Shown here: piece by piece, positions 7,071 to 9,947 of the stretch
Numbering within the stretch: the first letter of the stretch is position 1
Layout: every line of letters starts with the position of its first letter
From: a bacterium
GTDB lineage: Bacteria; Patescibacteriota; Minisyncoccia; Phycocordibacterales; Phycocordibacteraceae
Length of the DNA stretch: 28,126 bases
Direction: 5' to 3'
Assembly (NCBI GenBank): GCA_043806295.1
Contig: JAZDHA010000024.1
Span: 1 to 28,126 of the forward strand
Notes under the pieces: model-generated
The model's database searches: none
What the model saw: only the letters and a program-made list of their open reading frames with translations
Told to the model about the DNA's origin: nothing
Program-made: the position numbers and the translations under genes

Positions 7071-7141
7071 CGCGGGGTAGAGGAGAGGTACCTCGTGGGG
7101 CCCATAACCCCAAGACGTCGGTTCGATTCCGACCCCCGCAA
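7071..7141 (+). tRNA. Initiator tRNA-Met (CAU)
   Basis: Full cloverleaf; C1:A72 mismatch, A11:U24, G-C run in the anticodon stem, CAT at 7103-7105, T-loop TTCGATT; CCA not encoded. Confidence 0.95.
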
Positions 7142-7146
7142 CTAGC

Positions 7147-7686
7147 ATGATTACAGATCAGCTCGACACAGCACTTTTTTACTCAATACATTCGCTTGCT
7201 GGACATTGGGCGGCTGTAGATTTTCTTATCGTTTTCTTCGGTGAATATTTTATCTACATCGTATTGGTGATTTTTATAATTGTTGCAATTCGCGCATACC
7301 AGAAAGAAAAACGAATTACAGAAATAACACCATATCTTGTGGCACTCATTGTCGCTGGTATCGCTAGATATACAATCACTCCAGCGATTCGTTTTTACTA
7401 CCATCACTTACGACCGTTTGTTGCGCTCTCGACCACGCATCTTATTACGGACACATCTTATTCTTTTCCTTCTGGACATACTATTGTTTTTTTCTCTCTT
7501 GCGACGGCAACATATTTCTTCAATAAAAAATTTGCGTATTTTCTTTATGTTTCAGGACTCATTGTAGGAATCGCACGAATTGTAGGTGGTGTGCATTATC
7601 CTTCGGATATTATCGGTGGAATTATACTTGGAATCGCAACGGGCGGGATTTTGTATTGGTTGTATACTAAGTGTCTATGCTCATAA
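7147..7686 (+). CDS. PAP2-family membrane phosphatase (BcrC-like)
   Basis: Three PAP2 motifs: R-x6-RP, SFPSGH and RIVGGVHYPSDI; several TM helices. Confidence 0.92.
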   Translation: MITDQLDTALFYSIHSLAGHWAAVDFLIVFFGEYFIYIVLVIFIIVAIRAYQKEKRITEITPYLVALIVAGIARYTITPAIRFYYHHLRPFVALSTTHLITDTSYSFPSGHTIVFFSLATATYFFNKKFAYFLYVSGLIVGIARIVGGVHYPSDIIGGIILGIATGGILYWLYTKCLCS

Positions 7687-8051
7687 ATGTCTGTATTGCA
7701 AAACTGCACCGCGCGACGGTTACTGACGCCGATCTTAATTATGTCGGTTCTATCACAATAGATGAGGCATTACTTGAAGCGGCTGGGCTTGTGCCGGGGC
7801 AGATGGTACAGATTACAAATCTTTCTAATGCCACGCTTTGGCGTACTTACATTATGAAAGGCGAAAAAGGTAAGGGGGAGATCATTCTAAATGGACCTCC
7901 AGCGCGGCTCTTTCAAAAGGGAGATAAAGTCGTGATCTTAGGCGAAGCGTGGATTGACGCGGCGGACGCAGCGAAAATGAGTCCGACTGTTGTCTTTATG
8001 GATGACAAAAATAACATTACTGAAGTAAAAAAGGGCTGGCATCCAAGTTAG
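7677..8051 (+). CDS. panD: PanD-family pyruvoyl-dependent decarboxylase with an altered substrate pocket
   Basis: From ATG 7677 it is collinear with E. coli PanD numbering: K9, H11, G24|S25, T57, Y58 and N72 are kept; R54 is L. Confidence 0.88.
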   Translation: MLINVCIAKLHRATVTDADLNYVGSITIDEALLEAAGLVPGQMVQITNLSNATLWRTYIMKGEKGKGEIILNGPPARLFQKGDKVVILGEAWIDAADAAKMSPTVVFMDDKNNITEVKKGWHPS

Positions 8052-8072
8052 GACACCCAGTGTCCTAACTTG
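8044..8072. repeat. Palindromic element, family A variant, overlapping the panD stop
   Basis: CAAGTTAGGACAC-CCA-GTGTCCTAACTTG, a 13-bp perfect stem; arm AAGTTAGGACA is identical to an arm of the recG element. Confidence 0.88.
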
Positions 8073-8160
8073 AGTTGCAAAAGCGATATTTGAGCGTACG
8101 CTTCTATCCAGAAGCTTTTGGTCTTTAGAGAAATCCACGAAAGTGGAAAGGGGGCATTAT

Positions 8161-9162
8161 ATGTATATGTATATAAGAGATTATCAACACCCGCTTCTTC
8201 GCGCTGCCGATCCGAGACGGAATCGGTTAGTTACATTGTTCCGCCTTGAACCTCCACTGAATCCATTTATGGACGATCATGTGGTCATCGATGCAGCGGT
8301 CGCGTATGGCGACTTGGCGAATGTAAAGATGATTCCGGCATTTTATATGCTTGCGGAATCAAAAAAGAAGGGACTGCTCGACGGAATACACACCATCGCT
8401 GAACCGACTTCCGGGAATTTTGGGAGCAGTATTGGATTGCTCGCTCCCGCTTTCGGCATACCGAATGTTGTCTTGTATATAAAAAAGGATTCGCCACCAG
8501 GGAAGACGCATGTGCTCGAGGCATTACCCTCGACAACGGTGATTAAGTATCCGCCGGGAGCAGGCAGACCAACCGGGCTCGAACTTGCAAAGGAATTTGC
8601 AAAACAGCCGGGAGTTATTTGCCTTAATCAGTATGGAAACCGGTTGAATCTCGAGTCACACTTTATGTATACAGGGCCGGCAATTTGGAGAGCGACACAC
8701 CAAAGCGTAACGGTTCTTGTTGGTGCGACGGGAAGCGGAGGAACACTCGGTGGTGCTGGCTTGTATTTAAAAAGCCGGAACAAAAAAATTGTCACTGTTC
8801 GAGCCGTAGCCGCTCCTGGCGAAGAAATTCCTGCAGGACGCACACTCAAGCAGATGGAAGAGATCGTTACCATCCCGTATCCGGAAAATACCTTCGACTT
8901 CACTCTTGACTGCGACAAAAAATCGGCGTATCTGAATGCTCTCGCGCTCGGAGAGCAAATACACAGCAAGCCCGGACCCACATCCGGTGAGACGCACAAA
9001 GTGACGATTAAGTGGATTGACGGAATGAAAAGAGTTGGGAATCTGGATCGTTATCGCAATAGTTCCGGAAATGTGCATGTTGTAGAGATCTTTGCAGATG
9101 CCATTGATCTCTATGCAGAACGAATTACTGGCGGTACGAATTACACGGAGGATGTACATTAA
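8161..9162 (+). CDS. Divergent cysteine synthase/CBS-family (fold type II) PLP enzyme; ORF open from GTG 8143
   Basis: PLP Lys in NVKMIP (8326-8328), EPTSGNF, NQY..N..SH..TGPAIW and GATGSGGT phosphate loop; AAGGGGG 6 nt before ATG 8161. Confidence 0.85.
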   Translation: MYMYIRDYQHPLLRAADPRRNRLVTLFRLEPPLNPFMDDHVVIDAAVAYGDLANVKMIPAFYMLAESKKKGLLDGIHTIAEPTSGNFGSSIGLLAPAFGIPNVVLYIKKDSPPGKTHVLEALPSTTVIKYPPGAGRPTGLELAKEFAKQPGVICLNQYGNRLNLESHFMYTGPAIWRATHQSVTVLVGATGSGGTLGGAGLYLKSRNKKIVTVRAVAAPGEEIPAGRTLKQMEEIVTIPYPENTFDFTLDCDKKSAYLNALALGEQIHSKPGPTSGETHKVTIKWIDGMKRVGNLDRYRNSSGNVHVVEIFADAIDLYAERITGGTNYTEDVH

Positions 9163-9201: not shown

Positions 9202-9229
9202 ACCACGAGGCGACGCCTCGTGGTTTTTT
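9202..9229 (+). terminator. Intrinsic terminator after the CysK-like gene
   Basis: ACCACGAGGC-GAC-GCCTCGTGGT (10-bp stem) followed by a T run; a second 13-bp hairpin lies just upstream at 9166-9194. Confidence 0.75.
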
Positions 9230-9947
9230 AGTCAATCGCTTTACGAATTATGAGGAACGGAGTCATTTCACTATCTTGTCCGGCTGGATTATCATGCAGA
9301 ATCTCACGAATAAATTTTTCACTGATGGCGTGCGTTGATTTTCCGAGCGAGAACGCACCGCGATAATTTGCGTCTACAATTACTGTTTCGGCCCCAAATC
9401 GTTCTTTAATTTTCTTTGCAACGCCGTTCGGATCCGCAGGCGCCTTTTTTGCATACTCTTGATACGGTTCAATCGTCCAAGACATCGGACAGTCAATCGA
9501 TTTTGCCATTTTGCCATTGATGAAATAAAACGCGCCTTTGATTCCAATCGGGCGCGTGAGCGCTGAAACAAAAGTCGCAAAAAGAACGCGCGGATATCCT
9601 GCCTCCTCTATCAATAATTGCATCGCGGGAGCTGTACCGTGTCCAAGACCGCGAAATTGTGGAGTACCAGCGTAGTTCCTAACTCGTTTTGATAGAAGTC
9701 GTGCGAGCCAAGAGGTTTTTACTTCATCACGCCTTATGATTCTGCCCTGAGTAAGACAAACAATTTTTTCACTTACAAAAATAATGTCATTTGGAGCAAG
9801 ATGCGGTGCTACATATTCCTGAATAATTTCCATCAAATCATCTCCTGCTTCTATAAGTCGTGTTTTGATAGGAAGTCGCAGATAACGCTCTTTTGCGACA
9901 AGAGCTTCAAGCGATTTTCCTTCGTTCGGGACGAGATAATTGGTCAT
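9228..9947 (-). CDS. Coenzyme F420-0:gamma-glutamyl ligase (CofE)-family protein
   Basis: LPIKTRLIEAGDDL, DIIFVSEKIVCLTQGR, PADP..VA..I and VIVDAN match the family pattern. Confidence 0.8.
   Translation of the reverse strand: MTNYLVPNEGKSLEALVAKERYLRLPIKTRLIEAGDDLMEIIQEYVAPHLAPNDIIFVSEKIVCLTQGRIIRRDEVKTSWLARLLSKRVRNYAGTPQFRGLGHGTAPAMQLLIEEAGYPRVLFATFVSALTRPIGIKGAFYFINGKMAKSIDCPMSWTIEPYQEYAKKAPADPNGVAKKIKERFGAETVIVDANYRGAFSLGKSTHAISEKFIREILHDNPAGQDSEMTPFLIIRKAID

Follow-up and report, generated by a model that had tools for sequence, protein, structure and literature searches.

The locus and its PanD-like gene

The window analysed here, a 28,126-nt stretch of contig JAZDHA010000024.1 from a patescibacterial genome of 0.57 Mb (93.6% complete), carries a small gene that encodes a homologue of PanD, the pyruvoyl-dependent aspartate 1-decarboxylase. 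The local gene order is tRNA-Met, PAP2, PanD-like, PALP (a fold-type-II pyridoxal 5'-phosphate, or PLP, enzyme) and, convergently, a CofE-like ligase. An initial annotation of this DNA had proposed that the PanD-like protein keeps its maturation residues while its pocket is remodelled for a substrate other than aspartate. To judge from the residues and genes described below, what is new at this locus is a pyruvoyl decarboxylase of the PanD family whose specificity pocket has been rebuilt and whose pathway context is new.

The gene lies on the forward strand (7677..8051) and encodes a proenzyme of 124 residues belonging to what we call the W55/P75 or, in full, W55/P74-P75 subfamily. Its open reading frame (ORF) spans 7671/7677..8051, and ATG 7677 was taken as the start because every close homologue opens with ML[IV]NVC. 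The product matches Pfam Asp_decarbox (PF02261) at 136.4 bits against a cut-off of 25 (E 5e-40) and the NCBI PanD equivalog model TIGR00223 with 117.6 bits, where the cut-off is 106. It aligns without gaps both to M. tuberculosis PanD (2C45, residues 4-113 on 4-113) and to E. coli pro-PanD (1PPY, residues 6-117 on 6-117), so that standard PanD numbering applies, as had been assumed from the start for the E. coli enzyme. The AlphaFold2 (AF2) model, built on a 77-sequence alignment, reaches a predicted local distance difference test score (pLDDT) of 95.5, and Foldseek superposes it on the PanD precursors 4CS0, 1PPY and 2C45 with template-modelling (TM) scores of 0.87-0.93 and root-mean-square deviations of 1.1-1.5 Å; compared at the level of the protomer, the model has the double-psi beta-barrel fold of PanD.

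The self-cleavage site G24-S25, in which Ser25 is the pyruvoyl precursor, is read directly from the codons at 7746..7751 (+, GGT-TCT). Codon reading likewise finds K9, H11, T57-Y58 (ACT-TAC) and N72 (AAT, 7890), all of which the initial annotation had listed along with the cleavage site, and adds Y22 and N112. Conservation was assessed on three sets: 120 close homologues, 150 representatives of a 50%-identity library and 80 genome loci. G24 and S25 are present in 120/120 close homologues and in 50/50 members of the subfamily; the processing and catalytic residues taken together (G24-S25, K9, H11, Y22, T57, Y58, N72) are kept in 118-120 of the 120, and at a level of at least 96% over the whole W55/P75 subfamily. 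As far as these residues tell, the core for Schiff-base formation and decarboxylation is intact (Ser25 as pyruvoyl precursor, K9, H11, T57, Y58 and N72), and we infer that the gene product is a self-cleaving pyruvoyl-dependent amino-acid alpha-decarboxylase with the PanD fold.

The substrate pocket

In M. tuberculosis PanD, the ligand carboxylate that occupies the place of the aspartate side chain is gripped by the guanidinium of Arg54* from the adjacent subunit and is also bound by the backbone NH groups of Ala74 and Ala75, and the R54A variant is inactive (PMC6969166). Arg54, Ala74 and Ala75 are described as strictly conserved residues of aspartate decarboxylases (ADC), Arg54 being the specificity determinant (PMC3314653). 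All three published donors to the side-chain carboxylate are absent from the window protein, which has L54, P74 and P75 at these positions. The arginine is lost in the segment L54-W55-R56 (7836..7844, +; CTT at 7836-7838, TGG, and CGT at 7842-7844), as the initial annotation had read it, and R54 is found in 176/176 canonical PanD homologues. P74-P75 (7896..7901, +; CCT-CCA) are the first residues of a short helix, 74-78, in the AF2 model, which suggests that the two lost NH groups would have stood at a helix N-terminus, a classic anion site. P75 occurs in 50/50 subfamily members and in 0/176 canonical proteins, in which residue 75 is Ala (168), Thr (4), Ser (3) or Leu (1) and a backbone NH is thus available in 176/176.

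The full set of changed positions comprises Q42, A52 (GCC, 7830), L54, W55, R56, P74-P75, F79, V86 and E90. Among them, 55, 56 and 90 lie within 5 Å of the docked aspartate in a modelled PanD complex (PMC10743139). E90 (7944..7946, +) is invariant in the clade of candidate phyla radiation (CPR) bacteria to which the window protein belongs, and replaces a pocket residue that is Tyr or Phe in 97% of the 176 canonical proteins. Not every change noticed at first carries the same weight: the substitution of G52 by Ala holds up well (G52 in 171/176 canonical proteins), but Q42, although present, is hardly unusual, being found in 41/176 (23%) of canonical PanDs, and was rejected as a diagnostic change. 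Similarly, the NGPPA loop does contain both prolines and does lose the backbone NH groups, but P74 alone was rejected as diagnostic since it occurs in 32/176 (18%) of canonical PanDs, among them the Francisella structure 3OUG. W55, F79 and the replacement of Tyr/Phe90 by Glu, which the first list lacked, are diagnostic.

The 120 close homologues, which are 80-100% identical, share 57 near-invariant positions, including Q42, A52, W55, R56, P74, P75, F79 and E90. Position 54 is variable in this set (L in 100, S in 16, otherwise A, P, I or M), while W55 and R56 are found in 120/120. Because residue 54 varies while R56 and E90 stay fixed, it appears that residue 54 is immaterial in the CPR clade and that R56 and E90 matter; E90 is a possible partner of R56. 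Overall, the comparison indicates that the aspartate side-chain site is dismantled and replaced by a pocket made of L/S54, W55, R56, E90 and F79.

A separate branch of the PanD family

The initial annotation had suggested mapping the remodelled homologues and their neighbours on a phylogeny: the W55/P75 homologues fall on one branch, and their conserved neighbours are non-pantothenate genes. A FastTree phylogeny of 230 rows separates 52 subfamily rows from 178 others with Shimodaira-Hasegawa (SH) support of 89, and IQ-TREE (LG+C20, 89 rows) places 36/36 sampled members on one side of a branch with ultrafast bootstrap (UFboot)/SH-aLRT (SH-like approximate likelihood ratio test) values of 92/95, a grouping that is partly circular since the signature columns were kept in the tree alignments and the group was defined by its pocket residues. 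Two odd rows and one canonical-looking row fall with the 36 members in the IQ-TREE phylogeny. The window protein lies inside a well-supported CPR clade in both trees (FastTree 99; IQ-TREE 100/95).

The positions specific to the subfamily are C6, W55, P75 (in most cases together with P74), F79 and a residue 90 that is not aromatic, all of which are present in the window protein. In addition, the triplet formed by residues 54, 56 and 90 differs between subclades and is fixed inside each (L/S-R-E, F-Q-E, H-E-L, R-K-M/L, L-H-T and others), which suits a family whose specificity may have diversified. Public sources label the close homologues aspartate 1-decarboxylase, and our literature search brought up no paper dealing with the PanD-like subfamily, with PanD in Parcubacteria or Patescibacteria, or with PanD together with ATP-grasp ligases. 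On these comparisons, the W55/P74-P75 branch is a distinct, uncharacterised subfamily of PanD.

Six cultured Bacillota carry a canonical, higher-scoring R54 PanD and one member of the W55/P75 branch each: Alicyclobacillus ferrooxydans, A. fastidiosus, Paenibacillus rigui, P. mesophilus, an Aneurinibacillus and Lacicoccus qingdaonensis. The canonical gene of Lacicoccus comes immediately after panC. This coexistence in the same genome implies that the branch is not merely the local form of PanD.

Some W55/P75 members (P0131, P0133, P0135 and L102:389-2117) have N-terminal extensions of 35-45 residues that are signal-peptide-like, and one extended member adjoins an autotransporter gene; it would be unusual for a pyruvoyl decarboxylase to be secreted or periplasmic. 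Outside the window, the representative library also contains a protein of 5081 residues (P0121) that the PanD-like query matches in 29 separate places (E 7e-53, 32% identity) and that resembles a giant protein of repeated PanD-type double-psi barrels, and another CPR genome encodes a 289-residue ORF (G122:C34:5390-6130; L110/L112) with two weak tandem PanD-domain matches of 38 and 35 bits, which may be a duplicated double-psi barrel protein.

Gene context in CPR bacteria and Bacillota

A PALP gene is adjacent to the PanD-like gene or within 1.5 kb of it in 14 of 16 distinct CPR loci, the two without it being L011 and the 3.7-kb contig L014. These loci show at least five gene orders. Besides the order in the window, a Kaiserbacteria-like arrangement has a GH130 gene divergent from the PanD-like gene, which is followed by PALP, VIT1, sometimes PAP2, two hypothetical genes and a CofE-like gene; PALP and CofE-like genes are divergent from the PanD-like gene in L013 and L015; the latter is divergent from PAP2-PALP in L113; and in L121 the order is Aldedh, PanD-like, PALP. 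The context of three 50%-identity representatives could be read only on contigs of 2.4 kb or less. A CofE-like (PF01996) ligase gene lies within 5 kb in 9/16 CPR loci including the window, the products in the eight other loci being 56-73% identical to the window's, and a PAP2 orthologue is found near the PanD-like gene in 5/16. The CofE-like ligase is not confined to the module, for it occurs in 28 of 401 sampled Patescibacteria genomes, against two with the W55/P75 type of PanD, and in one of these two (G368) its gene is 60 kb from the PanD-like gene.

In the Kaiserbacteria-like genomes (L003, L007, L125-L128) two GH130 mannoside-phosphorylase genes and a PMM/HAD gene form a block about 60 nt upstream of the PanD-like gene, which is always divergent from it; in the window's genome this GH130/PMM-HAD block is on another contig (C3). 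The VIT1 gene and the two hypothetical genes of the Kaiserbacteria-like module were not found in the window's genome.

In Bacillota the partners are of other families. Paenibacillus has an operon-like row of the PanD-like gene, a YheC/D ATP-grasp ligase gene and a ThrC-like PALP gene, the last encoding an additional paralogue and not the housekeeping ThrC, while in Alicyclobacillus the divergent neighbours of the PanD-like gene are genes for a YheC/D ATP-grasp protein and a major facilitator superfamily (MFS) transporter. A metagenome-assembled genome (MAG) of Bacillota has a tight same-strand row (L022:1765-6354) of a ThrC-like PLP enzyme, an aldehyde dehydrogenase whose second-best match is the sulfoacetaldehyde dehydrogenase SafD, a class-III aminotransferase and an L54/R56 PanD-like gene, a row compatible with chemistry leading from an amino acid to an amine, an aldehyde and an acid. 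What recurs across these loci is, by predicted function, a trio of a PLP beta/gamma-replacement enzyme, a PanD-like decarboxylase and an ATP-dependent amide ligase.

The PLP partners are far more divergent than the decarboxylases: identity among CPR loci is 27-71% for the former and 59-90% for the PanD-like proteins. The window PLP enzyme, for example, is 33% identical to L003:6453-7433, though the PanD-like proteins of loci with the gene in the same position are 83-86% identical, and only about seven close relatives of the window type of PLP enzyme were found. Compared with the decarboxylase, its partner evolves or is exchanged much faster.

In the window itself, a tRNA-Met gene (CAT; 7071..7142, +) lies directly 5' of the gene for a PAP2-family membrane phosphatase (7147..7686, +; Pfam PAP2, E 3.6e-20), which overlaps the PanD-like start by 10 nt and has orthologues near the PanD-like genes of L003, L010 and L125 (38-44% identity) and of L113 (30%). 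On the other side, 95 nt downstream, lies the gene for the fold-type-II PLP enzyme (8143..9162, +; Pfam PALP, E 4e-25), whose likely start is ATG 8161, 3' of a GGAAAGGGGG box. The enzyme belongs to the CysK/CysM/SbnA/CapA-like group and retains the PLP lysine and the SGNFG and GSGGT loops, and the genes of its orthologues stand immediately after PanD-like genes; comparison with NCBIfam gave no assignment to CysK, CysM, SbnA, CBS or CapA, all scores being far under the cut-offs. The CofE-like amide ligase (F420_ligase family; 9228..9947, -; PF01996, 49.5 bits against a cut-off of 25) is encoded convergently, 1.2 kb from the PanD-like gene.

A weak terminator-like hairpin (8100..8115, +), seen in a consensus scan only, lies between the PanD-like and PLP-enzyme genes, and upstream of it there is a perfect 7-bp inverted repeat (AGGACAC CCA GTGTCCT, 8051-8069), whose first base is also the final one of the PanD-like stop codon. 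A 10-bp GC-rich hairpin (9202..9224, unstranded) lies in the gap where the PLP-enzyme and CofE-like genes converge and is likely their shared terminator. An Rfam search around the window genes returned the tRNA-Met, and no riboswitch or other element.

A predicted decarboxylase for an amino acid other than aspartate

On balance, we favour a reading in which the PanD-like enzyme probably decarboxylates an L-amino acid other than aspartate within a PLP-enzyme module. It is favoured because three carboxylate contacts are lost, the proteins form a separate branch, they coexist with canonical PanD and their contexts are non-pantothenate, and to this extent the initial annotation is borne out; the part of its proposal that stands less firmly concerns R56, a MAG with pantothenate genes and the members that keep R54, all of which are weighed below. 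The PLP enzyme would most likely supply the amino acid, or else consume the amine that is formed. The CofE-like ligase and the PAP2 phosphatase would often participate, an ATP-grasp enzyme filling the ligase role in Bacillota: the ligase would join the amine product through an amide bond to a carboxylate, possibly on an envelope component, and PAP2 may strip a phosphate or serve a lipid carrier.

Which amino acid is used can only be guessed at, and our rough order is L-cysteate (yielding taurine), O-phospho-L-serine (yielding phosphoethanolamine), L-cysteine or another beta-substituted alanine, and a diamino acid. Three points make cysteate attractive: synthases of this compound arose in both of the lineages to which the partner PLP enzymes belong, L-cysteate is the tightest of the listed competitive inhibitors of PanD (Ki 0.08 mM; PMC3314653), and the aldehyde dehydrogenase of the L022 row has its second-best match in a sulfoacetaldehyde dehydrogenase. 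It is a lead only, since the partner enzymes and the aldehyde dehydrogenase all score far under the cut-offs of the families concerned. A bolder version, which we hold very tentatively and think rather improbable as a whole, is that the branch represents a new class of pyruvoyl decarboxylases whose substrate is an amino acid with an anionic group other than a carboxylate (L-cysteate to taurine or O-phosphoserine to phosphoethanolamine). With a cysteate-synthase-like PLP enzyme, PAP2 and a CofE-like or ATP-grasp ligase that would amide-link the amine to an envelope or small-molecule carboxylate, it would make up a self-contained pathway. In that version, the module would rank among the very few biosynthetic modules that ultra-small CPR genomes have kept, and they would have it in common with spore-forming Bacillota.

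Several observations weigh against a new substrate, and most of them converge on the chief alternative, namely that the protein is still an aspartate 1-decarboxylase in which R56, perhaps with Q42 and the indole NH of W55, replaces R54, and whose beta-alanine is used outside pantothenate synthesis, for example in a beta-alanyl conjugate made by the CofE-like or ATP-grasp ligase. We consider this unlikely, though a serious contender. The protein does pass the cut-off of the TIGR00223 equivalog model for PanD. R56 is invariant in the CPR clade while position 54 varies freely, it lines the pocket in the modelled PanD-aspartate complex, where residue 56 lies within 5 Å of the ligand, and the E56S substitution alters the activity of BsADC (PMC10743139); aspartate could thus still bind in a shifted way through R56. 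Arg or Lys at position 56 is found in 30/50 subfamily members, and no common canonical state has either. One Paenibacillus clade of the subfamily keeps R54, and its members may still use aspartate. In the MAG G408, panB-panC is followed by a tetratricopeptide-repeat (TPR) gene and, in an assembly that may be incomplete, the sole PanD homologue detected is an L54/R56 member. The recurrence of the gene context also counts for less than the number of loci suggests, the Kaiserbacteria-like CPR loci sharing synteny and not being independent samples.

The pantothenate route, or its absence, helps little to decide. The initial annotation had pointed out that no panB or panC is nearby, and this is true genome-wide: panB, panC and coaB/DFP (PF02548, PF02569, PF04127) have no match in the window genome at its 93.6% completeness, and CoaE has only a sub-threshold match of 22.9 bits. 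However, a PanD homologue of any kind occurs in 10 of the 401 sampled Patescibacteria genomes, of which two (G000 and G368) have the W55/P75 type and six a canonical R54 PanD, and panC is found neither in G368 nor in four genomes with the canonical type (G080, G352, G339 and G091). As panC is also absent where CPR genomes have an R54-type PanD, the missing route does not separate the two types, and the argument from it for a new substrate is weakened; the orphan canonical PanDs rather favour aspartate, in that beta-alanine may have a use independent of coenzyme A (CoA) in this phylum. The six canonical genes (L114-L119, in G080, G352, G339, G091, G237 and G113) have no PLP partner in the roughly 8-kb flanks scanned; their neighbours include genes for a B12/radical-SAM enzyme, a UMPH-1-type nucleotidase and a GGDEF protein.

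Against the retention of aspartate stands P75, which abolishes a backbone NH that all 176 canonical PanDs have. Moreover, orthologous CPR modules lack both R54 and R56 (L54/Q56 in L113, F54/Q56 in L015), which argues against Arg56 generally taking over from Arg54. The pocket is altered at positions 55, 79 and 90 too, canonical PanD is kept beside the paralogue in the six cultured Bacillota, and a PLP beta/gamma-replacement partner is not needed for a beta-alanine route.

A second alternative, which we regard as very improbable, is that the PanD fold is non-catalytic and was repurposed, for instance as a regulatory or scaffolding subunit of the PLP enzyme, the processing residues being structural only. 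The PLP partner does adjoin the gene while being far more divergent, and R54 has been implicated in the self-cleavage of C. glutamicum PanD, according to a reference cited in PMC10743139, so that processing might be impaired. On the other hand, the high conservation of the processing and catalytic residues over a deep and diverse subfamily is difficult to reconcile with such a role, as is the strong purifying selection on the gene. We also know of no precedent for a non-catalytic PanD. Comparison of the window gene with its orthologues from four CPR loci gives dN values of 0.08-0.15 and a saturated dS (>1.5 or not computable), hence dN/dS <0.1. The initial annotation had raised decay as an alternative, and a decaying or recently transferred gene without function in the window genome, to which the patchy phyletic pattern (PanD homologues in 10/401 genomes) might point, can be set aside as barely conceivable given the intact frame, this dN/dS with saturated synonymous sites, the 57 near-invariant positions over 120 homologues and the conserved partner genes.

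If the favoured reading, a substrate other than aspartate, is correct, the small PanD fold would have acquired a second chemistry, and the decarboxylase would be the entry to an amine-conjugate pathway kept under strong selection in a 0.57-Mb genome. That such a pathway is retained would point to a function at the cell surface or in the symbiotic lifestyle of CPR bacteria. Metabolic reconstructions of CPR bacteria and of many Bacillota that follow public annotation or the NCBI equivalog model may credit these organisms with the synthesis of beta-alanine or pantothenate, which the W55/P75 proteins probably do not perform.

Comparison with known systems

The closest known system is PanD itself (EC 4.1.1.11; E. 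coli 1AW8/1PPY, M. tuberculosis 2C45/6OYY, T. thermophilus 2EEO), with which the window protein shares the families, the fold, the G24-S25 site, a length of about 120 residues and the residues K9, H11, Y22, T57, Y58, N72 and N112. It differs from PanD in lacking Arg54 and the backbone NH donors at positions 74 and 75, and in having W55, R56, F79 and E90 where PanD has F/L55, E/S56, V79 and Y90; in addition, its gene is unlinked to panB, panC or the CoA pathway, and its branch coexists with true PanD in Bacillota. Recruitment of this type of enzyme to another substrate would not be without precedent, since CrpG is related to PanD. CrpG is the beta-methylaspartate alpha-decarboxylase of cryptophycin biosynthesis (PMC6471175), that is, an enzyme of the aspartate-decarboxylase type working on a non-aspartate substrate outside pantothenate synthesis, a likeness drawn from its description and not from its sequence. 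The substrate of CrpG still bears a beta-carboxylate, however, and its gene belongs to a cyanobacterial natural-product cluster rather than to a module with a PLP enzyme and a ligase.

For the pathway logic, the nearest parallel is the amidation of the C. jejuni capsule, in which Cj1436 is a serine-phosphate decarboxylase, Cj1438C an ATP-dependent amide ligase and Cj1435 a phosphatase (PMC12409886). The logic is the same as that proposed here, a decarboxylase making a small amine, a ligase amidating a carboxylate with it and a phosphatase finishing the product, and the window likewise has neighbouring genes for a decarboxylase, a PAP2 phosphatase and a CofE-like ligase. The analogy is functional only: the proteins are unrelated, and Cj1435 is not a PAP2 enzyme. 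Cj1436, for its part, is PLP-dependent. Lastly, the partner PLP enzymes come from the same two lineages as the cysteate synthases, the ThrC-like one in Bacillota (as is TIGR03844) and the CysK-like one in CPR bacteria (as is CapA, NF053679), while scoring far under the cut-offs of these families, at 85 against 600 and 69-73 against 325.

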